The notes under the pieces: model-generated | The model's input: the letters and a program-made list of their open reading frames with translations, nothing else | Told to the model about the DNA's origin: nothing | Database searches by the model: none | Assembly: GCA_002790835.1 (NCBI GenBank) | Contig: PFVX01000024.1 | Coordinates: 7,167 to 71,166, forward strand | Origin: a bacterium CG_4_9_14_3_um_filter_65_15 | Lineage (GTDB): Bacteria; Krumholzibacteriota; Krumholzibacteriia; LZORAL124-64-63 | DNA length: 64,000 nucleotides | Direction of reading: 5' to 3' | Part shown: positions 24,774 through 49,951 of the stretch, piece by piece | How the letters are laid out: each line of letters begins with the position of its first letter | How positions within the stretch are numbered: the stretch's first letter is position 1 | Position numbers and translations under genes: made by a program

Positions 24774-24989
24774 TGAGCTTCGAGACCTTCCCCGGATCCG
24801 CCACTCCATCCATCTGGACGGTCCCCGGTATTCCTGCTGTGTTGACCCGGAGCCCTGCCCGCGTGCCGCGCCGGTGCTCCCATCCGGTTCACGTTACCGT
24901 GGCCGGTCTTCCCCGAGGGGGCGGCCGGGATGGGAAACCCTGATCGCACCCGGAGTCAGAATGACCATTTCCGGGGACGAATTCAAGTT

Positions 24990-27900: not shown

Positions 27901-30900
27901 GGATCATGCGGGGCATCAGCCGCACGGGTCTGGACCTTTCCAAATCCCAGTTCGTGGAGATCTGGGTCAACGACGGGATCCCCGAAAAGGAATTCCGTTC
28001 CGGTCGCCTGCACATCGACTTCGGGTACATCAACGAGGACGGCTTCTGGACCCGGGATCTCGACAGCAGCCTGGTCATCGGCAATTTTGATCAGGAGGAT
28101 GGCATCACTTATAAACCGGGCCCTCCCCCCACGGGCACTCCCCCCGACGGCATATTTTCCGCGGGTGACGAGGATATCGGCCTGGACGGCCAAGGGGAGA
28201 ACGGGCCCCAGGGCTACAGCGCGGAATATGAGATCGGCGGCGATTCGCCTTTCCCTCGTATCAACGGCACCGCCCGCAACAGCCGCGAGGACACCGAGGA
28301 TCTGAACCGCAACGCGCGGATGGATCGCAACGACGGGTATTTCACCACCGTTATCGACCTCCAGGATACCCCGGCTCTGATCGACGTGGATTACGACTTC
28401 GATTCCGCTGACGTGGCTGAACTCAAGGACCAGAACATCGCCTGGCGCAAGTACCGCATTCCCCTCGGAGCGGTGGACAAGGTGTCTGTCGGGTCCACCG
28501 CGGACATCCGATCCATCACCCACGCCCGGATCTGGTACGAGAACGATACGCAGGAAGCTCCCGATGCCGTGCGCCTCCAGCTGTCGGACTTCAAATTCCT
28601 GGGCAGCCGCTGGGAACGCGAAGGCGTGCGCCGGATCAGCGACGAGGCGCTGCTGGACGACATCGAGCGCCGGGGCGCCCAGTTCTTCCTGGGAGAGGTC
28701 AACAACAAGGAGAATCCCGACTACGTCCCGCCCTTCGCCGTGCACGAGATCAACAGCATCCCGGAAAAGGAACAGGCCCTGGTGCTGGATTTCGACGACC
28801 TGCAGCGGGGACAGATGATCCGGACCAGCAAGGTGGTCTCCCCCCGGGGAGACGACTACACCTTCTACAAGGATCTGTCCTGGTACTTCTCCAACCCCTC
28901 CCAGCAGAATGTTGACCTGGATCTTTTCTTCCGCGTGGGGTCGGACTCGCTGAATTTCTACGAGGTCAACTACCGCTTCGCCCAATCGACCTTCAAGGTG
29001 GGCTGGCAGCAGTTCACGGTGAACCTGGCCGAACTTTCCAACATCAAGAACGGCGAGATCGACATCGAGGGCGTGGCCCACGGAGAGGTCCCCGATGTCA
29101 ACACCGGCGAACTCTATTCCGCCCGCGTCGTCGGCCGGCCGGACCTGCGCCACATCAGGCGCTACTACTTCGGAGTGATGAACCAGGTCCTCAGCGAGGG
29201 AGCGCAGGGCTATTTCTACTTCAACGATGTCCGATTGCTGGACGTGAAGAAGGAATCGGGCATGGCCCAGAGGGCCGGTGTGCGTCTGAACATGGCCGAC
29301 ATCATCAAGGTGGATTTCGACTGGAAGCACACGGACTCCGAATTCCACGGCCTGGATGAACGCGCCGGTTCGGGGGTGGATTTTCGGGACTGGAATGTGG
29401 CCACGAATTTCAAGGTCGATGATTTCGTGCCCTTGCTGGGGTTCCAGCTTCCGGTGAACCTGAGCCGTCGCCGCACCGTCAACCGCCCGAAGTACGAGGT
29501 GAACAGCGACATCGAGATTCTCGAGGCATCCACGGCCGATGCCATGTCCACCATCGATGCCCAGGAGCGGTTCTCCACCCGTCTGCGCCACCCGCCGAGC
29601 AAGGCCGTCCTCGCCCGCTACCTAGTGGACCCCTGGACCCTTCAGGTCAGCGGATCGCGCACGACCTACGACGGCCCTCTGGCCGAAAGGCGGGGGAAGA
29701 GCCTGCAGGGCTCACTCAACTACGACCTGCGGATCAGCGGGCGCCACAGCCTGGGCGACTACCCGGTGCTGGCCTCCGTGCCCTTGTTGCGGGGGCTGTC
29801 ACTGGTGCCCACCAAGGTGACCCTGGGGGCCAACTTCACCAACCGTTGGAACGCCACCACGACTCTCAACGAAGACGGCGTGGTGACCCAGCGTTCCCAG
29901 TCGCAGAGCCGGCCGGGGGTTCTCAGCGCCAACCTGGACTACAATCCCTCCCTGATCCTCGATCTCACCTTGGCGGCGAAATCGGACCGGGACCTCCTGC
30001 GCGAAAAGCGGGCCTTCGGAGTCAACGTCGGCGAGGAGAATCAACGCAGTTACGATATGCGCATGACCGTCAAGACTCCTCGCGCCAAGGATCTGCCCGA
30101 CGGCCCCCTGTTCATGCCCCTGCGGTCGGCGGCCCGCTTGGCCAACAAGCTGCGGCCCTCGGTCCAGTTCAACGGCAAATTCGTCGACCAGCACGGCCCC
30201 GGGGTGCGCCAGACCGCGGGTCAGACCAATGTGCGCAACATCAACAATTCGGGGAATTGGGACTTCCGATTCGATGTGCCTCTCGGCGACTGGGTCAAGA
30301 GCGTATTCCCGGAACACCGCGTAACGAGCCAGGAGAGGCAACGGTTGATCAACGAGCAGCGTCGCCTGGAAAAGCGTGCGCTCCGGCAGGGTGGGTCCCC
30401 TCCCGGTCAAGGCCAACCCGAACAGGATATCGACGAGTCCGGATTGACCCCCGAGGAACGTCAGCGCCGGGAAGAAGAGCGGCTCCTGGAAGGGGCGCAA
30501 CAGCGGCAAGAGGAGGAGGCTGACCAGGGCTTGGCCGAGCCGGAGGAAGCTCCGCCCCCGACGGAGGGCGAGCGCCTCAGCCCCATGATTCTCATCAACC
30601 CTTTCCTGGATCTGCTGCGGGGCACCGCGCCGGTGAAGATCTCCACTTCGCGGCAACAGAACAGCACCTACAGCCAGTTGCGGACCGGAGCCCCCTTCTG
30701 GTACCAGACGGGTATTGAAAATGTTCTGGATGCGGCCGACAGCCTGTATGCCTCCAGGAGCTACCAGGACCGCAAGACGCTCAATCTCTCGAGCAGTTCG
30801 AAAATCACGCGGAACATCGGCTTGGACACCAAGTACACCGTCACCAGGTCGGTGCGGGATCAGGTCGGCAGCACGACCCGGAACAAGCAGGTCGATTGGC

Positions 30901-31514
30901 CGGACTTTTCCCTATCGGTCAGCGGTCTGGAGAAATGGGGGGTTTTCGGGGGCATCGCCAGCGACCCCAATGCGGGCAGGTTCCGTTCCGCGAACTTCAA
31001 TATCAGCTACAAGAAATCCGAAACGGTGAACAACTACACCGATACCTATTACAACCCCACCGTCAACAAGGTGATTTCGCCCCGCCTGACCTTCAATTTC
31101 CGGAGTGGTTTGTCGGCAACGGCCAATGCCACGGTGACCAGCAACGATGCTCAGTCCAACGGTGTGTTGACGTCCCTGCGCCGCCAACGCATCGGCTTGC
31201 AACTGAGGCACCAGTTCCGGGCCCAGAGGCTGCTGGCGAAACTGGGGCTGTACCGGCCCGGAAACAATCCCTCCATCACCATGGATGTGGATATCTCCTA
31301 TCAGCGCTCCCGCACCGAACGTTTCACTCCGGGTAGCGTGGTTTCCGCCCCCACGGGCCAGTCCAGTATCAGCCTGCGCCCCCGCTTCAGTTATCAGATT
31401 TCCCGGAGTCTCAGCGGCGCCTTCAACATGGGTTTTTCGAAGTCCAAGGATATCGCCACCGACCGGACAACGACTTCTCTCGGCATGGGAGTGGAGATGA
31501 CCTTTGTATTCTAG
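24990..31514 (+). CDS. sprA: T9SS outer-membrane translocon SprA/Sov (giant beta-barrel, 'cell surface protein SprA')
   Basis: Size is about 2,175 aa (SprA-like). It has an N-terminal signal peptide (RWYLGLLLLLGVLWGTADRALA), a long beta-rich sequence with G/T/S/N/Y periodicity, and a C-terminal aromatic residue (…GMGVEMTFVF) typical of OM barrels. The N-terminal region resembles the SprA N-domain (..SGTIGEKI.IEVDHNS..). The start is uncertain between 24930 and about 25035. Confidence 0.7.
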   Translation: MIRPHSPTGRGPGSVQVNPRPPSRAPRQSTGPRWYLGLLLLLGVLWGTADRALADPNYEGPLLYGLDPVIRSTDNPRLLGVDRLLLLRRMKSLGIDPQRTGITRPTLESSLRRVWDDRSRVDLQRRETVLEYNGLFGLMFEFRYPTFMFFYQEAVALPGGLTYYPPRPVRDPAVQVFVDDLHQGMMRRQTVDRRLTRMDDLAVAGKGRQNGQNDGLINLTIPIKLPHTLEKIIGRGEKTRIKISGREHFALNGESTVIKPFVGNERMSNQSLFPSLDMKQELQINLSGTIGEKIIIEVDHNSEAIGPEATKIKLMYQGLEDEVIKTIETGDVGLTLPGSQLLGYSSNKSGLFGFKVTGQVGRTDFTFVTSKQKSQSSSKTFNAKGGQEEDRIINASDYLNNRFFKLDLPDSEPQGRRQGETIVYGSVKIFKWLGTGIRGEGEVAVAAYFDSLGVHAWDSIDFGHPEPITEVGPRWQEITDFEALLDAAGSLIAIDMGRSYLDEDVLAVIYDVVDGNGVITSVGDKPGVDEPVQELPNDEGTFYRMKLLKVPHNKSNSRLFNYVLRNIYPLGGSNIDASTFDLRIEYEKPGLDQPQQDVNGLDFFRIFGLDQENAQGEPGHDNVVDFHDPYLFDLERGLLKFPLDFPTPFAADSTQYEAYADDSEKFKWETSTLKDNLAPEFYNYDKTIPPSRFGEYSRFHFVVHHASASSNISLGTSSIEEGSESVVVNGRTLTRGTDYSIDYTFGEIQLLGDAANLTPDSQISVNYQYAPFIGGGKTSLTGLNLGYDLGRNAKMSTTWLYQSEAIVGEKAKLGEEPSHTLVGNVNLNTTLKPYLLTHVANFLSRHDSDRESSIQLSGEMAVSLPNPNTKGQAYLEDFEGVDSSNYVSLTRASWSWASVPFLGEAYQDTSLDFRTFAPEKRVTTRWFLPRDRVLRRYLNPNLIKEERDDTQQVMDLYLRADEGWEGDNWGGIMRGISRTGLDLSKSQFVEIWVNDGIPEKEFRSGRLHIDFGYINEDGFWTRDLDSSLVIGNFDQEDGITYKPGPPPTGTPPDGIFSAGDEDIGLDGQGENGPQGYSAEYEIGGDSPFPRINGTARNSREDTEDLNRNARMDRNDGYFTTVIDLQDTPALIDVDYDFDSADVAELKDQNIAWRKYRIPLGAVDKVSVGSTADIRSITHARIWYENDTQEAPDAVRLQLSDFKFLGSRWEREGVRRISDEALLDDIERRGAQFFLGEVNNKENPDYVPPFAVHEINSIPEKEQALVLDFDDLQRGQMIRTSKVVSPRGDDYTFYKDLSWYFSNPSQQNVDLDLFFRVGSDSLNFYEVNYRFAQSTFKVGWQQFTVNLAELSNIKNGEIDIEGVAHGEVPDVNTGELYSARVVGRPDLRHIRRYYFGVMNQVLSEGAQGYFYFNDVRLLDVKKESGMAQRAGVRLNMADIIKVDFDWKHTDSEFHGLDERAGSGVDFRDWNVATNFKVDDFVPLLGFQLPVNLSRRRTVNRPKYEVNSDIEILEASTADAMSTIDAQERFSTRLRHPPSKAVLARYLVDPWTLQVSGSRTTYDGPLAERRGKSLQGSLNYDLRISGRHSLGDYPVLASVPLLRGLSLVPTKVTLGANFTNRWNATTTLNEDGVVTQRSQSQSRPGVLSANLDYNPSLILDLTLAAKSDRDLLREKRAFGVNVGEENQRSYDMRMTVKTPRAKDLPDGPLFMPLRSAARLANKLRPSVQFNGKFVDQHGPGVRQTAGQTNVRNINNSGNWDFRFDVPLGDWVKSVFPEHRVTSQERQRLINEQRRLEKRALRQGGSPPGQGQPEQDIDESGLTPEERQRREEERLLEGAQQRQEEEADQGLAEPEEAPPPTEGERLSPMILINPFLDLLRGTAPVKISTSRQQNSTYSQLRTGAPFWYQTGIENVLDAADSLYASRSYQDRKTLNLSSSSKITRNIGLDTKYTVTRSVRDQVGSTTRNKQVDWPDFSLSVSGLEKWGVFGGIASDPNAGRFRSANFNISYKKSETVNNYTDTYYNPTVNKVISPRLTFNFRSGLSATANATVTSNDAQSNGVLTSLRRQRIGLQLRHQFRAQRLLAKLGLYRPGNNPSITMDVDISYQRSRTERFTPGSVVSAPTGQSSISLRPRFSYQISRSLSGAFNMGFSKSKDIATDRTTTSLGMGVEMTFVF

Positions 31515-32463
31515 ATTGCGAACCTGGATCTGCAGGGCCCTGGTCGGTTTGATCGGGGTGGCCTTTGCATGGTCGACTTTCGCCTACGCGACGTCGGACA
31601 GCGGGGCGGTTCCCGTATTTTCCGGGAAACGCGCCATGGAACTCGTTCATCTCCAGTGCGACCTGGGTCCGCGGGTGCCGGGATCGCCGGCCAACCGCGC
31701 CCTGCAGGACACCATCCTGGCTCATGCGGAGGAATTGGGGTTCGAGGCTCGACGGGGTTGTTTCCGCGCCACGAATCCCCTGACCGGCGAAGAGATGGAT
31801 GTCTGCAATTTCGTGGTCATCCTGCCGGGCACGGGAGCCGGGCCTTCCCTGTGGTTGGGGGTCCACTTCGATTCCCGACCCCTGGCCGACCAGGACCCCG
31901 ATCCCCGGATCCGGACTCAGCCCGTCCCCGGGGCCAACGACGGCGCCAGCGGTGTGGCCGTCCTGTGGCACCTCATGGAAATGGCGGGGGCCAGCCCTCC
32001 GGCGCGCACCGTCGTGTTGATGTTCCTGGACGGCGAAGACTCCGGCCGGGAAGGGGATCCGGAGAGCTTCTGCCTGGGCAGCGCGCACCTGGCGGCCGGG
32101 TGGGGTGGGTTCAATAGTCTGTTGCCTGCCGCGAGGCCCGAGGGTGTGATCATCCTGGATATGGTGGGCGATGCCGATCTGGAAATCACCCAGGAATCCC
32201 TATCCTTGAAGTATGCGCCGGGTTGGACCTCACGGGTGTTCGAGAGGGCCGCCGCGCTTGGTCTGCCGGCGTTCCAGGCGCGCGGTGGTCGGGCTGTTTT
32301 CGATGACCACATTCCGTTTTTGCGCCGCGGCCTTCCCGCGGTGGATCTCATCGATTTCGACTACTCGCCCTGGCATACCGGCGGGGATGTTCCGAGTGCC
32401 TGCAGCGCTGGGAGTCTCGCTCAATCGGGCGCCCTGCTCACGGACCTGATCTACAATCCGTAA
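31504..32463 (+). CDS. Glutaminyl-peptide cyclotransferase-like protein (M28-fold, mono-zinc QC type), membrane-anchored
   Basis: HFDSR...PGANDGASGVAVL...FLDGEDSG matches the M28 zinc-site layout, but with N-D where aminopeptidases carry D-D, as in animal-type/Bacteroidetes glutaminyl cyclases. It has an N-terminal hydrophobic anchor. The TTG start at 31504 or 31516 overlaps or abuts the sprA stop. Confidence 0.65.
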   Translation: MYSRLRTWICRALVGLIGVAFAWSTFAYATSDSGAVPVFSGKRAMELVHLQCDLGPRVPGSPANRALQDTILAHAEELGFEARRGCFRATNPLTGEEMDVCNFVVILPGTGAGPSLWLGVHFDSRPLADQDPDPRIRTQPVPGANDGASGVAVLWHLMEMAGASPPARTVVLMFLDGEDSGREGDPESFCLGSAHLAAGWGGFNSLLPAARPEGVIILDMVGDADLEITQESLSLKYAPGWTSRVFERAAALGLPAFQARGGRAVFDDHIPFLRRGLPAVDLIDFDYSPWHTGGDVPSACSAGSLAQSGALLTDLIYNP

Positions 32464-32570
32464 GCCATCCGAGGGGGAGGATGATTCGCACTAAATTCCC
32501 TGCGCGGCCTGCCGATATGTCGGGGGACCGTTATCGCGCCCAGACCTTGGAATGTGCAAAGGAGCAGGGA

Positions 32571-33107
32571 ATGATCACCACCTGCACGGAGTGCCAGGCT
32601 CGTTATCAACTGGAGGACCAGAAGGTTCCCCGCCGTGTCATCAAGGTCCGCTGCCCTGACTGCAGCGGTATCTTCTCTCTGGATGGGACCGCTCGCGCCG
32701 AGGCGGAAGCTCCCCTGGTGGTCGAGCACGGAGGGCGCGATTTGACGCCGCAGCCGGTTGCTCCCGCGCCCCAGCTGTCCGGGGAACCCGTTCGGGCCCA
32801 GGCTCCGTCTGCCGGGGTTGCCGTCCTGGAAGAAACCGGCGTCGCCCCCGCAGCGAGTCGTGGCCGCCGCCGCCGCAGCAAGGAAGAGATGTACGCCCGC
32901 GCCCTGGTGTCGGATATCCTCGTCTACAACCGGGATGCCCGCGACCAGGCCCTCAAGGACGGGACCCTGGTCGAAGCCCTGGGGCAGGAGATCAAGAAGA
33001 GCTGGGAACTCTACAAGGAAAAGGTCACCCCGGAGGTGGCCAACGGCACCGATCATTTCAAGAAAGCCCTCAACGAGATCCTGGCCGAGGGCGCCGAGCT
33101 GTTCTGA
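32571..33107 (+). CDS. MJ0042-family zinc-ribbon protein with a C-terminal helical domain (function unknown)
   Basis: MITTCTECQARYQLEDQKVPRRVIKVRCPDCSGIF carries two CxxC pairs in the MJ0042-type zinc-finger layout. It is followed by a Pro/Ala-rich linker and a conserved-looking C-terminal EEMYARALVSDILVYNRDARDQALKDG... domain. ATG 32571 with RBS aaggagcaggga; the track ORF starts upstream at 32481. Confidence 0.6.
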   Translation: MITTCTECQARYQLEDQKVPRRVIKVRCPDCSGIFSLDGTARAEAEAPLVVEHGGRDLTPQPVAPAPQLSGEPVRAQAPSAGVAVLEETGVAPAASRGRRRRSKEEMYARALVSDILVYNRDARDQALKDGTLVEALGQEIKKSWELYKEKVTPEVANGTDHFKKALNEILAEGAELF

Positions 33108-33186
33108 TCCCGGGCGCCCCGACTTCGAGGCGTCCCTGTCCATGGCGAGACCCGGTCCTCGACCGGGTCTCCGCTTTTTGGGTTTT

Positions 33187-33630
33187 CTAGGACCCACCCC
33201 ATTTATCCCGACTGATCTCCTCGAGAATATCGTCGATCTGCTGCCTCACCCGGACGTTCTGGTCGGGTTCGAAGAGGGCTTGCTTGACCCTGCCCTGATC
33301 GTCCTTCTTCACGTAGCGCAGGCTCTGGAGGTCGGCCATGGACATGAGGATGTCCTTGCTGACCCGGACCTCGACCGGATGGCCCTCCTGGTTGAGGCGG
33401 GGATTGTTGAAGGGATGCATGCCGTTCCCCCAGCCGTGGACGACCATGGAGCAGAGCAGGGCGCGGAAGGTATTCTGGCCCTGCACGGTTTCCAGGTCGA
33501 AACTGCCCCCGACCTTCGCGATGACGCTGTCGATGACTGCGCACAATTTTGCCGCCAGTTGGGGTTCCACGTCCATCTGCAACAGTCGCGAAAACATGGT
33601 GTTGAGGATCTTGTCGGTGTTGGTGGACAT
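33187..33630 (-). CDS. Hypothetical protein (147 aa), divergently transcribed from the MglA-like gene
   Basis: The ORF MSTNTDKILNTMFSRLLQMD... starts at 33630 with a good RBS (gggag, 7-nt spacing). It is a soluble protein with no recognisable family. The track's longer versions (33753 start) lack an RBS. Confidence 0.5.
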   Translation of the reverse strand: MSTNTDKILNTMFSRLLQMDVEPQLAAKLCAVIDSVIAKVGGSFDLETVQGQNTFRALLCSMVVHGWGNGMHPFNNPRLNQEGHPVEVRVSKDILMSMADLQSLRYVKKDDQGRVKQALFEPDQNVRVRQQIDDILEEISRDKWGGS

Positions 33631-33892
33631 CTTGGAACTCCCGATCCTGTGCGGTCCTGTCGTTTCCCGTATGGGGGGGGATTGTCCCGAAATCCCCCAT
33701 CGGGGAGCATTGCGCCCGATTTCCGGGGAGGGTGTTGCAAATTGCTTGCCCAATCCGGTCGTACCCCCCGAATTCCCTTGAGTTTGTCAATACACCGGAA
33801 AATTTTCCATGGCATACCGATTGCACCCAAGGGGTGATCATGCCGCTGACCGTTCCTTTTGCCGGGGGTTGGATCCCGGAGGAGAGCTGCCC

Positions 33893-34720
33893 ATGTCGGT
33901 TCAGAATTTGACCGCCACCGCCTGCTGCCGTCTTCTGTATTACGGCCAGGCCGGAGTGGGCAAACGGGAGAATCTGCGGCTGATCCACCAGTTCGTGCCA
34001 CCGGAATCGCGCCTGTCGATCGCGGTGGAGGATCCCGAACGTCAGATCGGCTTCAACCTGCCCCAGCCGGGACAATCGTCGCGCCAGGTCCTGGTGCAGG
34101 CAGTGGATGTGGGGAAGGAGCGTTATCACGCCGCCGGGATGACGTCGCGGTTGCCCTTCGACGGCGTGGTCTTCGTCATCAACTCCGGAGTTTCCCAACT
34201 CGACCAATCGCTGGCCGCCTTCGAATCCCTCAAGATGTTCCTGGATTCGTGGGGGATGGACCTCATGCGGATCCCGGTGGTCCTTCAGTACAACCGCACC
34301 GGAAGTAACGAGGAAACGATCCCCGTGGATCGGCTGGAGAGCCTGCTCAATCCTTGGGGACTGCTCTCCTTCCCCGCCGCCACATTGCGCGGCGAAGGGG
34401 TCCGTGAAACCCTCAAGGCCGTCCTCGGCTTGGCGGTCAAGCACCAGGAGGAGCAGGCCGTCATGATGCCCAATTTCAACCCCCGGCACTCCGAGGCCCC
34501 ACCGGCGGAACCGGAGCCTCCGACGGAATCGAAGCTGCAACTGGAGTACGGCCCGGCGTTACCCGGCGCCGAGATGGAGGAATCCACCCGTCTGCGCAGT
34601 GAGCAGATCTTCAACGACCTGCGCCCTCCGCTGGTGATCCCGGTCAAGATTCCCCGTCGTCTGGTCAGCGGCCTCAAGGGACCGCTACGGGTCTTCCTGG
34701 AAATCGAATTCGAGGATTAG
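33893..34720 (+). CDS. MglA-like Ras-family small GTPase with degenerate nucleotide-binding motifs and an about 90-aa Pro/Glu-rich C-terminal extension
   Basis: Block-wise similarity to Myxococcus MglA: CCRLLYYGQAGVGKRENLRLI vs KIVYYGPGLCGKTTNLQYI; PFDGVVFVINSG vs GVDGVVFVADSQ; IPVVLQYNRTGS vs IPYVIQYNKRDL; GEGVRETLKAVLGLAV vs GVGVFDTLKAVAKLVL. The P-loop Ser/Thr is Arg, the switch-II Gln is Lys, and NKxD is NRTG. ATG 33893 with RBS ggaggagag. Confidence 0.7.
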   Translation: MSVQNLTATACCRLLYYGQAGVGKRENLRLIHQFVPPESRLSIAVEDPERQIGFNLPQPGQSSRQVLVQAVDVGKERYHAAGMTSRLPFDGVVFVINSGVSQLDQSLAAFESLKMFLDSWGMDLMRIPVVLQYNRTGSNEETIPVDRLESLLNPWGLLSFPAATLRGEGVRETLKAVLGLAVKHQEEQAVMMPNFNPRHSEAPPAEPEPPTESKLQLEYGPALPGAEMEESTRLRSEQIFNDLRPPLVIPVKIPRRLVSGLKGPLRVFLEIEFED

Positions 34721-34755
34721 CCGCCTGACTGTTGACCTGTTTGCGATCCTACCCT

Positions 34756-35637
34756 ATGGTCCCGACCATGGACACTCCAAGCACGACATCAGGGAAATCC
34801 GCCATCGGGCCGGATACCTTGGCGGACCAGCTGGCCGCCGGGCTCCGCCTGGAACGAGAGGGCCGGTGCGCGGCCGCCCTCGATCTTTACCACCACCTCC
34901 TGAGCGACCACCCCGACGAATGCCGCCTGCATTATCGGGCCGGCTGCGCGGCGCTCAAGATGGGTGAAGCCGCAACGGCCCAATCCTTTTTCCAGACCGC
35001 GGTGGCGCAGGATCCCGACAATCCCCGCTACCTGACGAATCTCGGGGTGGCTCTCGATCGCCTGGGCCGGCGCGAGGACGCCGTGAGGCTCTACAAACGG
35101 ACGGCCATGCTGGATGGGGGCACCGTGGTGGCTCACCATAATTTGGGTGCGATCTATGCCGAACAGGGGCGCATGGACGAAGCCTTGCGTTCGTTCCGGG
35201 CCGCCATCGCCCTGGAACCGGACGCCGAGGGCTATCACAACCTGGGACTCGTCCACTTCCGGGTCGATGATTTCGTTGCCGCCCTGGAGAATTTCCGCAA
35301 CGCCGTGGCGTGTGACTCCGGCTACGCGGTGGGCCACTATTACGTTGGCCTGTGCCTGATGAAAACGGGGAACTACATCGCCGCCATGGAAGCTTTCCAT
35401 AGAGCCTGGGGCCTGGATTCACGCCTCGCGCGGGTTCCCTACCACCTGGGATGCTGCCTGCACAAGCTGCAGCGGCATGAGGAGGCCCGCAGCCGCCTCG
35501 AACAGGCCCTGGACGCCTTCCCCGAGGATGGCCGTCTCCACTACCAGCTGGCCCTGACCTGTGACGCCTTGGGATTGCACCCCGAAGCCCGGATTCACTA
35601 CGGCATGGCCACGGGACGCAACAACCCCAACGAATGA
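34756..35637 (+). CDS. Tetratricopeptide-repeat (TPR) protein
   Basis: About 290 aa with at least six TPR units (e.g. AHHNLGAIYAEQGRMDEALRSFRAAIALEPD; GHYYVGLCLMKTGNYIAAMEAFHRAW). It lies immediately downstream of the MglA-like gene. Start is uncertain (TTG 34732, ATG 34756 or ATG 34768). Confidence 0.7.
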   Translation: MVPTMDTPSTTSGKSAIGPDTLADQLAAGLRLEREGRCAAALDLYHHLLSDHPDECRLHYRAGCAALKMGEAATAQSFFQTAVAQDPDNPRYLTNLGVALDRLGRREDAVRLYKRTAMLDGGTVVAHHNLGAIYAEQGRMDEALRSFRAAIALEPDAEGYHNLGLVHFRVDDFVAALENFRNAVACDSGYAVGHYYVGLCLMKTGNYIAAMEAFHRAWGLDSRLARVPYHLGCCLHKLQRHEEARSRLEQALDAFPEDGRLHYQLALTCDALGLHPEARIHYGMATGRNNPNE

Positions 35638-35675: not shown

Positions 35676-36464
35676 GTGCCCGAGTTTCTCAACATGCTTA
35701 TCCTGGCGGTAGTCCAGGGGTTGACCGAGTTCCTGCCCGTCAGCAGTTCCGGTCATCTCGTCCTGCTCCAGCATTTCCTGGGAACCCGGGAAGGCGATGT
35801 GTTCTTCGATGTCGTCCTGCATGGAGGCACCCTGTTTTCGATTCTCGCGGTGTACCGCAGGGAACTGGTCCGGCTGCTGAAACTCGATTCCGATTCACTC
35901 CGGTACATTCTGGCCCTCGGCTTGGCGACGGTGCCGGCGGTGGTGGTGGGTCTGCTGGCGCAGGATACCATCGATCGCCTGTTCGGCGCCCCACGTCTGG
36001 CCAGCCTGGGCCTGATCTTCACGGGGTTGGTGCTGCTTTCCACCCGTCTGGTCCACGGGGCCGGGGGGGGCGACGCTGGCGAATGGAAACCCCGGCCGGT
36101 GGCACCGCTTCAGGCCCTGTTGATCGGATGCGCCCAGGCCCTGGCCATATGTCCGGGAATCAGCCGCTCGGGTTCGACCATCGCGGCATCCCTGTGGCTC
36201 GGATTGCCACGGACGGAGGCCACCCGCTTCAGCTTCCTGATGGCCATCCCGGCCATCGCCGGCGCGGTCGTCTTGAATCTGGTCAAGGGTGGCGGGGCCG
36301 ATAGTGTGGGGGGCGGGTTCCTGCTGGCTGCCGCCGTGGTTTCCTTCGGGGTGGGGCTGTTGGCTATCCGTTTGACGGCTCTGGCGGTGGTCCGGGCGCA
36401 TTTCTGGAAGTTCAGCTTCTACTGCCTCGCCGTGGGAGCGGTGGCCTGGATCGTCCTGTCCTGA
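35676..36464 (+). CDS. uppP: Undecaprenyl-diphosphate phosphatase
   Basis: VQGLTEFLPVSSSGHLVL is the N-terminal UppP/BacA signature; 262 aa, polytopic; a second conserved motif PGISRSGSTI is present. GTG start. Confidence 0.9.
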   Translation: MPEFLNMLILAVVQGLTEFLPVSSSGHLVLLQHFLGTREGDVFFDVVLHGGTLFSILAVYRRELVRLLKLDSDSLRYILALGLATVPAVVVGLLAQDTIDRLFGAPRLASLGLIFTGLVLLSTRLVHGAGGGDAGEWKPRPVAPLQALLIGCAQALAICPGISRSGSTIAASLWLGLPRTEATRFSFLMAIPAIAGAVVLNLVKGGGADSVGGGFLLAAAVVSFGVGLLAIRLTALAVVRAHFWKFSFYCLAVGAVAWIVLS

Positions 36465-36477
36465 TCGGGGCGGTCGA

Positions 36478-36852
36478 TCAGGCCGGGCTGCCCTGCAAGA
36501 GATTGGCCACCGTGGCTGCCACGCGGTTTTCGTCGAAGGGCTTGATGATGAAATCCTTCGCTCCGGCCTTGATGCCCGAAAGGACCAGGTTGCGTTGGCC
36601 CAGAGGTGCGACCAGGACGACCTGGGCCTCGGGATCGGCCGTCAGGATGCCGGTGAGGGCCTCCAGACCGTCTGCATCGGGCAAGGTGGTGTCCAGCATG
36701 ACAATCTGGGGCCGGAGTCTCCGGAATTCCTTGATGGTTTCTTCGGCGTCGGCGGCTTCGCCGACAACCTTCATTCCCATGTTTTCCAGAATGTCCCTGA
36801 GCATGGCCCGCATGAAGTCTGCGTCGTCGGCGATGAGTACGGTGTGGCCCAA
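36478..36852 (-). CDS. Stand-alone response regulator receiver domain (CheY-like)
   Basis: HTVLIADDADFMRAMLRDILENMGMKVVGEAADAEE...IVMLDTTLPDADG...VVLVAPLGQ...AGAKDFIIKPF carries the receiver Asp pocket (DD, D, T/S, K). A TTG at 36852 has RBS ggagg; the track ORF's upstream extension to 36945 is unlikely. Confidence 0.75.
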   Translation of the reverse strand: MGHTVLIADDADFMRAMLRDILENMGMKVVGEAADAEETIKEFRRLRPQIVMLDTTLPDADGLEALTGILTADPEAQVVLVAPLGQRNLVLSGIKAGAKDFIIKPFDENRVAATVANLLQGSPA

Positions 36853-37027
36853 AGGGTAAACCTCCGCGATGCTTGCTATGGGCGCCGCGAGGGCCAGCGC
36901 GGGGAACGGATTTCCGGGCGGTCTGTTTGCAAAGTACGCGTACATGATCGGCCCGGTAGCCGGGGACTTTAGGACCCGGTGTCACGGGTGAGTTGAATAG
37001 GTGGTGGGATCCTCGAGGAGGGGACTT

Positions 37028-38449
37028 ATGCGATCAAGAACAAGAATTCTCTGGGGGACGGCCCTGGCTCTGACCTGCAGCCTTATGGCGGCTCAGATTC
37101 TCGCCGCAGAGGTCCCCGTCCTGCATTCCGACCGTTCGGACCTGCAGGAGGTCTACCTGACGGTTTACAACCAGAACCTGGCTCTGGTCAGGGAGGTCCG
37201 GGAAATCAACCTCCCGGCCGGAGACTTCTCCCTCGAATACCGGGAAGTCCCCTCGTCCATCCAGCCGGCGACCCTGCTGGTTGAGGCCGACCCCCGCACC
37301 AGGTTGACGCTCTACGACCAGAACTACGAGTATGACCTGATGACTCCCGATAAGATCCTGGAAAAGTATGTGGGGCGCGAGGTGTCCTGGATCCAGGAGG
37401 ACGGGTCGCGGATCACCGGGCGCCTGCTGGGCGTCAACGGTCGTCCGGTCTACCAGGTTGGTGAGGAGATCCTGTTCGGGGTCCCCGGTCGCCTGGCTCT
37501 TCCCGATTTGCCCCCCAACCTGCGGGCGCGGCCGACCCTGGTGTGGAATGCCCATGCCGGGCAGTCCGGCAAGACGCGGGTCGAGGCGTCCTACCTGACC
37601 GGCGGTTTGAATTGGCATTGCGACTACGTGTTGCAGCTCGACCGGGCCGGCACCTCGGCGGGCATGCAAGCCTGGGTGACGCTTGACAATCAATGCGGAA
37701 CGGGCTTTGACGGAGCCACACTCCAGCTCGTAGCCGGGGATATCAACCGCGCCACCCAGGATCGGGCCCGACCGATGGATATGGGATTTGCCGTGAAATC
37801 CTTGGCCGGAGCACCGCCGAGCTTCCAGGAGGAGAGCCTTTACGACTACCATCTGTACACCCTGGACCGGCCGACCGATCTGAAGGACAAACAGACCAAG
37901 CAGGTCTCCCTCTTCGACCGCAGCGGAATCAAGGTGAGTCGGCGCTACCTTCTGCAGGGTAATCCCCGCTTTTTCCGGGGTTACGACCAGCTTCAGGACT
38001 ACGGCAAGATCAAGGTGATCTACAGCTTCGAAAATGCCGAGGACAACCGACTGGGGATGCCCATGCCGGCGGGAGTGGTGCGGATCTACGGCCTGTCGTC
38101 TTCGGGTGGCAGGCAGCTCCTCGGTGAGGATCGGATCGATCATACGCCGCAGGATGAGACCGTCGACCTGACCGTGGGCACGGCGTTCGACATCGTCGCC
38201 GAGCGGGTGCGCGAAAGTGTCGAAAAGGTGAGCGACCGGATCACGCGCAACACCAATCGCGTGACCCTGCGCAACCACAAGGACGAGGATATCGTCGTCG
38301 ACGTGCGCGAACCGGTCGGGGGCCAATGGGAAGTCTTGGAGAGCACTTTCCCCGCCAAGAGGATCAGCGCCTCGGAGTTGGGCTTTTCCGTTCCGGTCAA
38401 AGCAGGCAAGGAGGCGGTGTTGAAGTACCGGGTGGAAGTGCGGTACTGA
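37028..38449 (+). CDS. DUF4139/DUF4140-domain protein (mucoidy-inhibitor MuiA-like family), secreted
   Basis: Signal peptide MRSRTRILWGTALALTCSLMAAQILA; N-terminal VYLTVYNQNLALVREVREINLPAGD... resembles the DUF4140 start, and the long C-terminal beta-rich region resembles DUF4139. ATG 37028 with RBS gaggagggg. Confidence 0.55.
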   Translation: MRSRTRILWGTALALTCSLMAAQILAAEVPVLHSDRSDLQEVYLTVYNQNLALVREVREINLPAGDFSLEYREVPSSIQPATLLVEADPRTRLTLYDQNYEYDLMTPDKILEKYVGREVSWIQEDGSRITGRLLGVNGRPVYQVGEEILFGVPGRLALPDLPPNLRARPTLVWNAHAGQSGKTRVEASYLTGGLNWHCDYVLQLDRAGTSAGMQAWVTLDNQCGTGFDGATLQLVAGDINRATQDRARPMDMGFAVKSLAGAPPSFQEESLYDYHLYTLDRPTDLKDKQTKQVSLFDRSGIKVSRRYLLQGNPRFFRGYDQLQDYGKIKVIYSFENAEDNRLGMPMPAGVVRIYGLSSSGGRQLLGEDRIDHTPQDETVDLTVGTAFDIVAERVRESVEKVSDRITRNTNRVTLRNHKDEDIVVDVREPVGGQWEVLESTFPAKRISASELGFSVPVKAGKEAVLKYRVEVRY

Positions 38450-38474
38450 TGATGTGTGCGGTACTGATGATGTC
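38439..38474. repeat. 18-bp tandem direct repeat (TGCGGTACTGATGATGTG / ...TC) spanning the stop codons of two convergent genes
   Basis: Read directly: two adjacent copies, 17/18 identical. Copy 1 contains the TGA of the DUF4139 gene, and copy 2 abuts the TAG (reverse strand) of the TPR-membrane gene. Confidence 0.6.
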
Positions 38475-40654
38475 TAGCGGCCGCGCAGCTGCCTGAGTCG
38501 GTTGCGCAACCCCGGGTCCTGGGGCCTGAGGGCCACGGCCTTTTCCAGAGCGGCGATCGCTGAAGGGCGGTCGCCGTTCTGCATCTGGGCCACGCCCAGA
38601 TTGGCCCAACCCTGGAAGTCGTCGGGGTCGAGGGCCACCGCGCGACGAAACCAGGTTACGGCACCCGGGGCATCGCCGAGATTCAGGGCGCAAACACCGG
38701 CGTTGAGCATCGAACCCGATTGGCGGGGATTGACCTCCACGGCGGCGGCGAAATGCCGGGCGGCGGCCGGGAAATCGCCCTTGGCCATTTCCCGATTTCC
38801 CAGGTTGTGCAACAGACCGGGATGGTCGGGACGCCGACTCAGCCCCTCCTGGAGAATCGTCGCGGACTGGGCGGGGAGGCCGGCCAACTCGGCCAGGCGG
38901 GAGGCGGCCAGGAAGAGATCCGCCGCCCTTGCCGCGCGCGCGCAGGAGCGGGCGGATTCCCGGGCAGAGGAAACGGCCCGGCCGAGAACGTCGCCTGAGG
39001 GGGGCGGGGAATTCTTCACCCACAGCATCCCGCCCGGACCGGCCGCCTGCAGGGACCAATCCTGCTCGTTCTGGAGGGAGCCGGCCAGACCATCGGCCGC
39101 GCCGCTGCCCTGGGCCAGACAGACCGCCGTGACCCGCTGCCGGTCCAGTTCCGCCAGGGCCCCGGTCCCACCCTGCTTGATCAGGTTGTAGGTGTTCCAG
39201 GTCGCAGCCGGAAACAGCTCGGTCCTGCCGTCGATGAACAGGGGGTTCGCGGTCCGGGCGATCACGAAGGCGGCGGCATCGAGGTTGGCGAAGGTTCGCT
39301 GGGGCTTTTGCCCTGCCAGGGCAGCGGTGGCGTCGATCGGATAAACCGCGGGGGTCAAGCCGCCTCCGAACCGTCGGCCCACGCCTTCGCGGAGGTAAAA
39401 ATCGTCGTGGATAATGCCGGGCCACCACACCAACAACGCGCCCAGCGCCGCTGCCAGGGGCAGCAAGGTCAGGGTCCGGGAGACCGCACGGGCGTGCAGG
39501 ATTCTGCGGATCGGTTGCGGCGGCCCGCCCCAGTCACCGCCGGGAAGCAGCATGAAGGCCACCGCCGCGAAGCCCAGGTTGCGGGCGCTGAACCACGCCG
39601 CCCAGGCGGCGGCGAAGAACACGAGGCTGCGCAGGATGTTGGGGCGCGGCCAGGCCAGCAGGATCCGACCGAGTCCCCAGAGTACGGCCACCTTGAACAG
39701 CAGGATGGTGGTGAATAGGCTTTGCGGCGACCGGGCCAGGGGGACCAGTTCACTGATGGTTCCGCGGAGATCCGCGCCATGGCCCGTGAATTGGCCGATG
39801 ACGGTGAAGGGATAGACCCAGCCCCGCCAACCTGCCGGAGTCAGGCCCAGGGCAAGCCAGCAAAACGCGAGGGTGGTTGCCCAGCGCCGCCAGTCGAAGG
39901 GTTGCCGGTTTCGGTTCAGCTTGGCCTGAAGCGGGAACAGGATTCCCGCCAGCAAAACCAGCAGGGGAACCAGCACCGCAAATCCGTGGAACTGGGCCCA
40001 GACGAGAGCAAGCCACGACACGCGCCCGCATTCGTGGCCCGGGTGGAGATAACTGCGCCAGCCGGGACGTCGGCCCGGCGGAGCTTGCATACATTTCTCG
40101 ATGGCGGGGATGGTCAGCACCAGCATGAGGTAGGAGATCAGCTCCGGCCGGATGGTCAGGCGGGGCCACAACAACCCCAGGCCCAGGAGCTGGGCCGGCA
40201 GGGTCCAGGCGTCAGCCAGGTGGGACCGGCTCTGTGTGGGGCGGACCAGCAGGGTCGTCAGGACAAGGACCAGGGCCAGCCGCAGGGTATTCCAGCCGGC
40301 CGCAAGAGTCGCCGGGTCGGTGGGGGCATTGGCGAGAGCGGTCGCCAGCTTCCCGACCCCCGCGATCAGGACCTGGAATAGCCACTCGTGATCAAACCAG
40401 GGGACGCCGGCTGCGCTGAAGGTGAAGAGGTTGGATTGGGGAAAGCGCCCGGCGAGAATTTCTCCCCCCACACGCCAATGGAGCCAGATGTCCAGGTCCC
40501 CCAGGGAATGCCAGGCCAGGAGGAGGGCCGTCACCAGGAGGGGCAGGCGGCTCCCCAGACGCGCCCAGCGCATCCCGCCGGAACCGACGCCTGTCGGGGG
40601 CCCGGGGAGATCCGTGTTTTCGGATGGTTCATTCATGGGGTGCCAATTTATCAT
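38474..40654 (-). CDS. Polytopic membrane protein (GT-C / protein-O-mannosyltransferase-like, DUF2723-type) with a C-terminal TPR-repeat domain
   Basis: 726 aa. The N-terminal ~300 residues hold many hydrophobic segments with Trp/Arg-rich loops; the C-terminal ~200 aa contain clear TPR units (HNLGNREMAKGDFPAAARHFAAAVEVNP; GWANLGVAQMQNGDRPSAIAALEKAVALRP). Family assignment is by architecture only. Confidence 0.5.
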   Translation of the reverse strand: MINWHPMNEPSENTDLPGPPTGVGSGGMRWARLGSRLPLLVTALLLAWHSLGDLDIWLHWRVGGEILAGRFPQSNLFTFSAAGVPWFDHEWLFQVLIAGVGKLATALANAPTDPATLAAGWNTLRLALVLVLTTLLVRPTQSRSHLADAWTLPAQLLGLGLLWPRLTIRPELISYLMLVLTIPAIEKCMQAPPGRRPGWRSYLHPGHECGRVSWLALVWAQFHGFAVLVPLLVLLAGILFPLQAKLNRNRQPFDWRRWATTLAFCWLALGLTPAGWRGWVYPFTVIGQFTGHGADLRGTISELVPLARSPQSLFTTILLFKVAVLWGLGRILLAWPRPNILRSLVFFAAAWAAWFSARNLGFAAVAFMLLPGGDWGGPPQPIRRILHARAVSRTLTLLPLAAALGALLVWWPGIIHDDFYLREGVGRRFGGGLTPAVYPIDATAALAGQKPQRTFANLDAAAFVIARTANPLFIDGRTELFPAATWNTYNLIKQGGTGALAELDRQRVTAVCLAQGSGAADGLAGSLQNEQDWSLQAAGPGGMLWVKNSPPPSGDVLGRAVSSARESARSCARAARAADLFLAASRLAELAGLPAQSATILQEGLSRRPDHPGLLHNLGNREMAKGDFPAAARHFAAAVEVNPRQSGSMLNAGVCALNLGDAPGAVTWFRRAVALDPDDFQGWANLGVAQMQNGDRPSAIAALEKAVALRPQDPGLRNRLRQLRGR

Positions 40655-49754: not shown

Positions 49755-49951
49755 GGAAACCTCACGGTGCCGGTTGAAGGGATCATACCAGATCCCCCGG
49801 GCTTCGCCAGGAAGAACCCGACCCAATCGCGGCTTTGCTCCACTCCAACGTTGATGTTAGATTCGGGATTCAGCCCGGGCGGACGGGACGCAAGCATCCA
49901 CAGGGGGTTTGCCCCATCCGCTTGCCCAATCAGGACAGCCAGGAGAACACC

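Follow-up and report, generated by a model that had tools for sequence, protein, structure and literature searches.

The gene at 33893–34720 encodes a 275-aa protein (plus stop) that matches MglA and that we consider, with a probability of about 0.7, to be the Krumholzibacteriota orthologue of an uncharacterised lineage of long MglA proteins, converted to a pseudo-GTPase and acting as a constitutive adaptor. This reading is based on homology, the predicted fold, the substitutions in the nucleotide site and their conservation, purifying selection, the surrounding gene module and a reductive series of related loci. Since the residues that hold Mg2+ and split GTP have been lost, the protein is probably a fixed adaptor within its gene module rather than an on/off switch. 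The gene lies in a 64,000-nucleotide stretch of contig PFVX01000024.1 (hereafter the window; features are on the forward strand unless stated otherwise). It was found in 56 GTDB species of Krumholzibacteriota, and its product has at least 313 full-length homologues.

MglA was the best match of the protein by sequence as well as by fold, which agrees with the MglA-derived origin proposed in a preliminary description of this DNA. The AF2 model is confident and shows the G-domain fold expected of a pseudoGTPase; the G domain is Ras-like and most similar to MglA, as in Group 1 of the family. There was no match to the protein in Pfam or NCBIfam, where the family falls below the thresholds of the Arf and Ras models. 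A Shine–Dalgarno sequence, GGAGGAG (33878–33884, found by inspection), ends 8 nt from the start ATG (33893); there is also an in-frame ATG upstream at 33809, but the starts of the orthologues match 33893. The G domain with its MglA fold (residues 8–185; 33914–34447) is followed by a 90-residue tail (residues 186–275) that contains 14 Pro and 14 Glu, whereas Group 1 MglAs are single-domain proteins of 150–240 aa. This tail comprises a variable Pro/Glu/Ala-rich linker (residues 186–214; 34448–34534), with a mean top-residue frequency of 0.28, pLDDT values mostly below 50 and pN close to pS, and a conserved C-terminal module (residues 215–275; 34535–34717), with a mean top-residue frequency of 0.72 and pLDDT values of 73–89. 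The module has the pattern LxhxYGPxhPG, a helix at residues 230–243 and then PPhhhPVxIPRRLh..G.hRhhLEhEh-D/E. Between the G domain and this module, mutual information was highest for residues 164 and 235, in an alignment with Neff of ∼ 78 and strong phylogenetic structure. The preliminary description correctly recognized a Pro/Glu-rich linker that ends in a conserved segment, but the segment is unrelated to the degeneracy of the G domain because canonical long MglAs carry the same one. The pattern hxVPVxhxR....hRhxLxhxh (residues 245–275), again preceded by a low-complexity linker, is present in P0320, P0341, P0299 and ∼ 35 metagenome loci, and canonical long MglAs have the final ∼ 30 aa at their own C-termini. 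From these sequence matches, the C-terminal module appears to be an ancestral feature.

The motif readings given previously (GQAGVGKR, DVGK and NRTG in place of NKxD) held up on alignment with MglA. In the P-loop, G18-QAGV-G23-K24-R25 (33944–33967), an arginine replaces the Mg2+-binding T26 of MglA. Instead of the GxxxxGK[T/S] of Group 1, GxxxxGKR was found in 120/120 clusters and in 55 full-length species orthologues. Group 1 MglAs have an intrinsic arginine finger beside a conserved G2 threonine (PMC4316618); in MglA this threonine, T54, binds Mg2+, and F56 and F59 mark the register shift of switch 1 (PMC6876712). The switch-1 remnant, E46-D-P-E-R50-Q51-I-G-F-N55 (34028–34057), retains the finger as R50 (MglA R53) in 120/120 clusters and has Q51 at the threonine position in 119/120; both of these features were missing from the earlier list of changes. 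The G3 remnant, D72-V-G74-K75-E76 (34106–34120), stands in place of T78-V-P-G-Q82-V, the TVPGQ of Group 1 with its catalytic Gln, in an alignment whose offset differs by 1–2 residues between methods. D72, G74 and E76 are invariant, whereas position 75, at the Q82 site, is occupied by R, K, Q, S, T, M, E, H or N across the family (56 species). The site drifts, and the Lys found here is not a selected change. The G4 remnant, N134-R-T-G137 (34292–34303), replaces N141-K-R-D144, the [NT]KxD motif of Group 1. The Lys position varies, unlike the invariant N134, and the Asp position is D in 64, E in 24 and G in 21 of the 120 clusters, Asp or Glu being kept in 88. The NRTG reading is therefore true of the window's own subclade, which has lost the Asp (NR[TLV]G, NRRP), but most orthologues have N-x-R-D/E within a family pattern of N-x-R-[D/E/G].

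Motif loss of the type seen in pseudoGTPases is accordingly consistent among the orthologues (T26R, T54Q, a variable Q82 site and a variable G4 Lys). The catalytic residues have gone, as previously claimed, and so have the Mg-binding residues. The statement that all three motifs are degenerate was nevertheless too strong: the substitutions are real, but the family shows little or no variation at GxxxxGK, N27, G74, N134 and R136, and the phosphate-binding loop is thus still constrained. We found no GK[ST], [NT]KxD or DxxGQ elsewhere in the window protein and none consistently placed in the family.

These residues bear on a second reading, possible but doubtful in our view, in which the protein is locked with GTP or another NTP bound in the absence of Mg2+ and is permanently 'on', like the Rnd proteins or the N-terminal domain of p190RhoGAP. 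The guanidinium of the invariant R25 would then replace the metal at the beta and gamma phosphates. Pseudo-GTPases that bind nucleotide without hydrolysing it are known (PMC10211241), and the invariance of GxxxxGK, N27, G74 (the gamma-phosphate Gly), N134, R136 and R50, together with an acidic G4 residue in most clusters, favours this reading. An arginine fixed in every cluster exactly at the Mg-ligand position also has the look of a functional replacement, not of drift. The variable G4 Lys, the loss of the G4 Asp in the window's subclade and the relaxed G5 residue A170 count against bound nucleotide. Furthermore, we know of no P-loop GTPase in which an arginine substitutes for Mg2+.

The family is maintained by selection. 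Because dS was saturated in most pairs, pN was compared with pS instead of calculating dN/dS. In the G domain, pN was 0.13–0.26 against a pS of 0.6–0.9; it was also far below pS in the C-terminal module, and in the linker the two values were similar. The five orthologue genes that were compared as DNA showed neither stops nor frameshifts. With GKR conserved in 120 clusters and 56 species, this pattern indicates selection and not decay. Decay of a pseudogene, or motifs misread because of an alignment artefact, could be suspected from one MAG copy (L061) that looks frameshifted, from a database entry (P0250) that is a read-through fusion with the neighbouring TPR gene and from the shifting G3 alignment. 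Both readings were rejected as having next to no likelihood, given that full-length ORFs are intact across 120 clusters and 56 species, that pN is well below pS, that the substituted residues are invariant, that no alternative canonical motifs exist and that the AF2 model is confident.

Comparison of 23 canonical long MglAs with 55 Krumholzibacteriota proteins showed where constraint has shifted. Sites that are invariant in the canonical proteins and relaxed in Krumholzibacteriota are T27, S46, T49, D58–P61, Q82, Y85, N86, A87, K90, V92, L93, K142 and A170, and four sites have switched from one residue to another (T26R, T54Q, F56A and V83E). The constraint seen in canonical relatives has disappeared from the switch-II helix and the interswitch, as one would predict for a protein that has ceased to switch. 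Invariant sites were gained at 103–111, 123 and 143–159. Residues 143–159 (34319–34369), which are variable in canonical long MglAs, form a newly invariant surface patch (L143, D146, R147, E149, S150, L151, W155, G156, L158 and S159), and the new invariant surface is on the alpha3 and alpha4–beta6 side. The G domain evolves 1.7–2.4 times faster than the p147 protein described below, compared with 1.1–1.4 times in most canonical-lineage comparisons.

Analysis of the gene neighbourhood revealed a conserved module. A divergently transcribed gene for a 147-aa protein, p147 (33187–33630, reverse strand), adjoins the MglA-like gene in 56 species. It has at least 629 homologues, the best 120 of which are 77–97% identical, and in metagenome loci it also neighbours canonical long MglAs. 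p147 had no match in a Pfam or PDB profile search, and its AF2 model is poor (pLDDT 55, from a shallow alignment). Past p147 lies a gene for an MJ0042/Zn_ribbon_4 protein (32481–33107; Pfam PF13717, E 8e-12, residues 31–65; TIGR02098), whose true start is probably an internal Met at ∼ 32571. Its position is conserved in canonical loci and in all of the 56 species whose contigs extend far enough. Between it and the convergent p147 gene lies a terminator-like GC-rich hairpin with an 11 bp stem and a T-run (33147–33171); a search of the whole window against Rfam gave no match. Downstream of the MglA-like gene, at a distance of 12 nt, is a gene for a 301-aa TPR protein (34732–35637; Pfam TPR_2, E 6e-35), which is probably co-transcribed with it and is likewise syntenic in 56 species; a 30–34% identical homologue lies 3' of canonical long MglAs. 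Further downstream are genes for an undecaprenyl-diphosphatase that is usually part of the module (BacA/UppP; 35676–36464; PF02673 on the orthologues and synteny), a single-domain response-regulator receiver (36478–36945, reverse strand; PF00072, E 1e-23, and synteny) and a DUF4139/DUF4140 protein (37001–38449; below the Pfam gathering score here, PF13598 on the orthologues, and synteny) with an N-terminal hydrophobic stretch resembling a signal peptide. The T9SS gene sprA was rejected as a member because sprA and an M28 peptidase gene occur upstream only in a shallower clade. In Group 1, a gene for MglB (Roadblock/LC7) lies within four genes of mglA in most, not all, members (PMC4316618). There was no Robl_LC7 match among the called genes of seven annotated loci, and tblastn with approximate MglA and MglB query sequences found neither a second MglA nor an MglB in the window.

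Canonical long MglAs (e.g. P0320), from candidate phyla of the FCB group (Latescibacterota where named), have the same G domain, low-complexity linker and terminal VPV...R...hRhxLxhxh module, and are encoded in the same gene module, with the Zn-ribbon gene, a divergent p147 gene, whose product is 56% identical, and a downstream TPR gene. Unlike the window protein, they keep GKTT, DRT, TVPGQ and NKRD. These proteins are 340–560 aa long, and in their loci the p147 gene is commonly, though not universally, separated from the Zn-ribbon gene by one for an HATPase_c_2 protein. Neither the window nor any of the 56 Krumholzibacteriota loci has such a gene there, and no homologue was found anywhere in the window. 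We found no paper describing the canonical long MglAs, which are automatically annotated as 'SRP receptor subunit beta' or 'MglA'; a 2014 survey of prokaryotic small GTPases left out proteins longer than 240 aa (PMC4316618). Four states of the module were found: canonical, an intermediate clade with GKT and no TVPGQ, GKR as in the window, and without an MglA-like gene. The loci form a reductive series from the canonical state through a broken switch and GKR to gene loss. The shared tail, the shared module and this series assign the gene to an unstudied MglA lineage, of which it is the Krumholzibacteriota orthologue. The term 'MglA paralogue' used previously was right as to derivation from MglA, but a better description of the protein is the orthologue, in this phylum, of a long-MglA lineage that has partner genes of its own. 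No MglA-like gene of any kind is present in three module loci, so the protein may be dispensable rather than a hub.

Some lineages have lost the gene but kept p147, which weighs against a working, non-canonical switch in which p147 or another partner supplies the catalytic and Mg-binding groups in trans. MglA does need MglB to complete its Mg2+ coordination (PMC6876712), the present family still has its arginine finger and P-loop Lys, and p147 is a constant and very conserved partner. Nonetheless, other residues stand in place of both direct Mg2+ ligands, the catalytic site is hypervariable, and constraint is relaxed along the entire switch-II helix relative to canonical proteins that share the p147 partner; we regard such a switch as very improbable.

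Under the preferred reading of a constitutive adaptor, the G domain has been converted by replacement of both direct Mg2+ ligands, the P-loop Thr by an invariant Arg and the switch-1 Thr by Gln, with the catalytic-Gln site and the G4 Lys free to drift and GDP/GTP cycling presumably lost. Going by gene order, the adaptor would hold p147, the TPR protein and possibly the Zn-ribbon protein through the switch-1 remnant, the new surface and the C-terminal module. In that case other members, for instance the receiver-domain protein, would provide the regulation. When Ras is free of nucleotide and in complex with SOS, its P-loop Lys16 pairs with Glu62. Our best guess, by analogy with Ras, is that R25–D72 and K24–E76 pairs may keep the pocket closed without Mg-GTP. 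Counter to this reading, the invariance of GxxxxGK, N27, G74, N134 and R136 and the persistence of the G4 Asp in roughly half the orthologues amount to more constraint than an empty pocket predicts. Preservation of the arginine finger might indicate residual phosphate chemistry. All genomes are uncultured MAGs; hence no phenotype exists and tests can be made only in vitro or in a heterologous host.

Literature searches found no described pseudo-GTPase in the MglA family, although pseudo-GTPases, which do not hydrolyse GTP and bind nucleotide either not at all (class i) or non-productively, are already accepted in eukaryotes. The four states provide an unusually clean comparison of one module with a canonical, a half-broken, a fully converted or no GTPase, which allows one to ask how the module works with a frozen switch and which residues were recruited to freeze it, such as the invariant Arg at the Mg2+-ligand position. 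We tentatively propose a linked pair, the P-loop Arg as a built-in Mg2+ substitute and p147 as cognate GAP, GEF or effector for an MglB-free MglA branch. If true, the former would make the protein a metal-independent small G protein, permanently nucleotide-loaded or phosphate-mimicking, with a mechanism undescribed in the Ras superfamily, and with the latter the Krumholzibacteriota series would be a natural experiment on which parts of a polarity-type module outlive the GTPase cycle. For researchers of bacterial polarity and small GTPases, the more valuable lead is the long-MglA branch itself, a large unannotated group with thousands of database entries, many automatically named 'SRP receptor beta', whose constant partner is the very conserved p147 and not MglB.

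Compared with the Group 1 MglAs of M. xanthus and T. thermophilus (PDB 5ymx, 6h17, 3t12), the 275-aa window protein has Arg for the P-loop Thr, Gln for the switch-1 Thr, D-x-G-x-E for TVPGQ, an eroded NKxD, and a linker with a C-terminal module; its neighbours are p147, Zn-ribbon and TPR genes, with no MglB/Roadblock gene nearby. It resembles the eukaryotic pseudoGTPases (CENP-M, p190RhoGAP pG1/pG2, AAGAB psGD, Rnd1/3) in having a G fold with degenerate motifs under selection. AAGAB shows the same pattern of lost switch-region constraint and a distinct conserved interaction surface that was gained (PMC12490416). Unlike these proteins, the window protein is bacterial and MglA-derived, and has fully conserved P-loop Gly and Lys residues and an invariant Arg at the Mg-ligand position. 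Bdellovibrio bacteriovorus MglA is likewise a member of the family without a coupled MglB (PMC4316618). In contrast to the window protein, it has 197 aa and standard nucleotide-binding motifs, and lacks the C-terminal module and p147. It reportedly works with a TPR protein and the receiver-domain protein RomR, a finding attributed to Milner et al. in 2014. In GltJ, the linker binds MglA-GTP while the ZnR domain binds the linker and MglB (PMC11135422). Since it is the linker and not ZnR that binds MglA-GTP, the Zn-ribbon neighbour in the window is only a loose parallel.

The MglA-like open reading frame (275 codons, 33893–34720, forward strand) is preceded by a Shine–Dalgarno sequence, GGAGGAG, read at 33878–33884 on the same strand; a further in-frame ATG lies upstream at 33809, but the starts of the orthologues match position 33893 instead. 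Pfam and NCBIfam searches with the protein returned no match. A phmmer search against PDB sequences aligned residues 10–182 with MglA of M. xanthus (E 1.4e-14) and T. thermophilus (5e-12). The motifs were read from HMMER and MAFFT alignments. The P-loop is G18-QAGV-G23-K24-R25, with R25 at the site of T26 of MglA; the Ser/Thr of this loop is the second direct Mg2+ ligand of P-loop GTPases. The switch-1 loop is D-P-E-R50-Q51-I versus D-R53-T54-L in MglA, in which Arg53 serves as the arginine finger and Thr54 as the switch-1 threonine that binds Mg2+ (PMC6876712). G3 is D72-V-G74-K75-E76 versus T78-V-P-G81-Q82-V, and G4 is N134-R-T-G137 versus N141-K-R-D144. The alignments disagree at G3 by one or two residues; D72 closes the predicted strand beta3, in the same place as Ras Asp57 and MglA Thr78, and it lies one residue closer to the Gly than in DxxG. 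GK[ST], [NT]KxD and DxxGQ do not occur at other sites of the protein, the alternative that would have refuted the preliminary description. The protein departs from MglA in the strict sense in its G1 Ser/Thr, TVPGQ, NKxD, MglB coupling and size; a tblastn search of the window with MglA and MglB sequences, which served only for this search and for residue numbering, was negative. Judging by the retained arginine finger (R50; criterion from PMC4316618), it probably descends from a Group-1-type MglA.

At least 313 full-length homologues were found among 5.8 billion proteins; the best 120 are 49–72% identical to the window protein and carry the name 'hypothetical' or, if a taxon is stated, Krumholzibacteria. 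With each GTDB species represented by one genome, a scan found the gene in 56 species, labelled Krumholzibacteriota/-iia, carrying no label or probably mislabelled, and every genome involved is an uncultured MAG. Five orthologous genes contain no stops or frameshifts. In these genes pN is 0.13–0.26 and pS 0.6–0.9 in the G domain (residues 8–185), proportions being given in place of ratios because dS is saturated; the C-terminal module (residues 215–275) gives similar values and in the linker (residues 186–214) pN approximately equals pS. Together with the presence of GKR in 120/120 clusters, the spread over 56 species and the intact orthologues argue for selection rather than decay. The P-loop GxxxxGKR and R50 are each fixed in all 120 clusters, Q51 is found in 119 and R136 in 111 of them, and D72, G74, E76 and N134 are invariant. 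Position 75 drifts (R in 65, K in 28 and Q in 11 clusters; R, K, Q, S, T, M, E, H or N among species), and so does the G4 Lys position (R, G, N, H, Q, S, E, C or A). The G4 Asp position is kept in part (D in 64, E in 24 and G in 21 of the 120 clusters), its loss being specific to the window protein's own subclade (NR[TLV]G, NRRP). The substitutions are either fixed or drift freely, an informative pattern, and by these sequences the gene is not decaying.

When 1.84 billion representatives were searched exhaustively with an HMM, this family yielded only about 11 clusters (50% identity), below which the score falls sharply to thousands of 300–600-aa proteins with an N-terminal canonical MglA-type G domain and a long low-complexity tail. 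The named members of this long-MglA branch are from Latescibacteria/Latescibacterota, and in JGI they carry the automatic names 'MglA' or 'signal recognition particle receptor subunit beta'. Because the 2014 survey of small GTPases in prokaryotes left out sequences longer than 240 aa (PMC4316618), the branch lay beyond its scope. Literature searches found no paper on Krumholzibacteria or Latescibacteria together with MglA and no publication on the window protein, the long-MglA branch or the neighbouring 147-aa protein, p147; the exact sequence of the window protein is already public as 'hypothetical protein'. Its terminal short module recurs at the end of many long MglAs, such as the database proteins P0320 (...TIEVPVRLTRNQISKSVPIKLELKIQVVDD) and P0299 (...VEVHVPVTLSKQQVRKAVPIKIVLDIRVDDA). 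Since the module also ends canonical long MglAs, the tail is an ancestral trait of the lineage and no correlate of the degenerate motifs. A variable linker followed by a short conserved end segment is indeed present, as first proposed for the Pro/Glu-rich tail, but a special tie to the motifs is not.

The more interesting lead is the gene module itself and its partner p147. Wherever the contig is long enough, the order in the 56 species is Zn-ribbon (+), p147 (−), MglA-like (+), TPR (+), usually UppP (+), a single-domain receiver (−) and DUF4139 (+). In the window, the Zn-ribbon gene (32481–33107, +) encodes an MJ0042-type finger from ORF residue 31; because the finger begins there and the orthologues start MIxxCxxC, the true start is probably an internal Met near 32571. 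A weak NCBIfam match of this protein to the GltJ N-terminus covers the Zn-ribbon alone. The divergent p147 (33187–33630, −) and MglA-like genes are separated by 33631–33892, a region of about 235–260 nt in the window and five orthologous loci (L001–L005), in which no sigma-70-like promoter and no Rfam match was found. Directly upstream of the module in the window are genes for a 2194-aa homologue of SprA, the type IX secretion translocon (24930–31514, +), and then an M28 peptidase (31504–32463, +); both were rejected as module members, as this upstream linkage is limited to the shallower Krumholzibacteriota clade. A 726-aa protein with a hydrophobic, membrane-like N-terminal part and C-terminal TPRs (38474–40654, −) is syntenic: both in the intermediate clade and in most loci of Krumholzibacteriota, its gene lies 3′ of the one for DUF4139.

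Across the 56 species conservation is far higher in p147 than in its MglA-like neighbour (70–91% versus 42–71% identity), and p147 retains 55–60% identity in other phyla. It has at least 629 homologues and a near-invariant core, TVQGQNTFRALxCSMxxHGWGxGMHP...RYVKKDxxGRVKxALFEPDxN; Pfam and PDB searches found no relative and the predicted structure model was too poor to use. Its neighbour is always a long MglA, or the TPR gene where MglA has been lost. A metagenome scan seeded with p147 gave 80 loci, and in those with long enough flanks p147 lies between a Zn-ribbon gene (usually with a HATPase_c_2 gene) and a divergent long MglA, beyond which comes TPR. About 35 of these loci have a fully canonical MglA (GxxxxGKTT, DRT, TVPGQ, NKRD) that ends in the C-terminal module wherever the 3′ end of the gene is on the contig. 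The locus of the canonical P0320 is organized like the window module: Zn-ribbon and HATPase_c_2 come first, then an oppositely oriented gene for a 154-aa protein (56% identity to p147, E 5e-62), an MFS gene, MglA and finally a TPR protein. In canonical modules, as in intermediate ones, the HATPase_c_2 gene (anti-sigma-type Ser kinase-like, ∼ 290–300 aa; for example, L064 3029–3898 and L065 4982–5887) overlaps the end of the gene for the Zn-ribbon protein; it is absent from the window and all Krumholzibacteriota loci.

Four states of the module can be distinguished. State A is canonical (loci L065–L134). State B (P0248, P0251 and P0391, from loci L064, L129 and L144) retains GK[TS] and N[KR]xD and has lost TVPGQ and the switch-1 Thr; HATPase_c_2 is still there and, as in the window, receiver and DUF4139 genes lie downstream. 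State C is the Krumholzibacteriota form, with GKR and without HATPase_c_2, and includes the window. State D (loci L140, L141 and L143) consists of Zn-ribbon, p147, then TPR, UppP, receiver and DUF4139 (e.g. L141 2213–7051), with a p147–TPR gap of just 142 nt and no MglA-like sequence detected even at E 10. Read as a reductive series, the order A to B to C to D is plausible. In the database entry P0250 (639 aa) an MglA-like protein of the intermediate clade is joined to the downstream TPR protein via out-of-frame sequence, and one MAG copy of the MglA-like gene (L061, 10001–10777) seems frameshifted; both are probably assembly errors.

Set against 23 canonical long MglAs, the 55 Krumholzibacteriota proteins compared show relaxation at T27, S46, T49, D58-F59-L60-P61, Q82, Y85, N86, A87, K90, V92, L93, D104, N119, E126, K142 and A170, sites that are invariant in the canonical set and take in the entire switch-II helix. 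Other residues were swapped for new invariant ones (T26R, T54Q, F56A, Y77Q, V83E, T72W, G95P and Y177R). The positions of F56 and F59 mark the switch-1 register shift of MglA (PMC6876712); one is thus replaced and the other relaxed. L103, D104, L107, E111 and D123 are invariant in Krumholzibacteriota and variable in the canonical set, and L143, D146, R147, E149, S150, L151, W155, G156, L158 and S159 form a newly invariant patch. With p147 as the yardstick, divergence of the G domain is 1.7–2.4 times as fast in Krumholzibacteriota and 1.1–1.4 times as fast in most canonical comparisons (1.9 in the closest pairs). This pattern is what would be expected of a switch that no longer switches and is retained for binding, and it resembles the use of a non-switch surface by eukaryotic pseudoGTPases such as AAGAB (PMC12490416).

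Both direct Mg2+ ligands are lost and the catalytic and base-recognition residues are no longer constrained; the remainder of the protein is under purifying selection and the neighbouring gene set is conserved. We consider it likely, with a probability of about 0.7, that the window protein is a pseudo-GTPase adaptor. It would not cycle and would act as a constitutive adaptor inside the p147/TPR/Zn-ribbon/receiver module, with putative partners proposed from gene order. Its pocket may be empty and shut by charge pairs: around K24 the family has acquired a basic residue (R25) and two acidic ones (D72, E76), which recalls nucleotide-free Ras–SOS, in which Lys16 is paired with Glu62 and a side chain occupies the Mg2+ site. 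Alternatively, nucleotide might still be bound without metal, with R25 replacing Mg2+, a reading that the invariant GxxxxGK, N27, G74, N134 and R136 and the partial retention of the G4 Asp keep viable. For the window protein itself the empty pocket seems the favoured form, because both the Asp and the Lys of G4 are lost. SpoIIE-type (PP2C) phosphatases usually partner HATPase_c_2 kinases, and the window also encodes an 855-aa PDZ-GAF-SpoIIE (PP2C) phosphatase (47259–49826, −).
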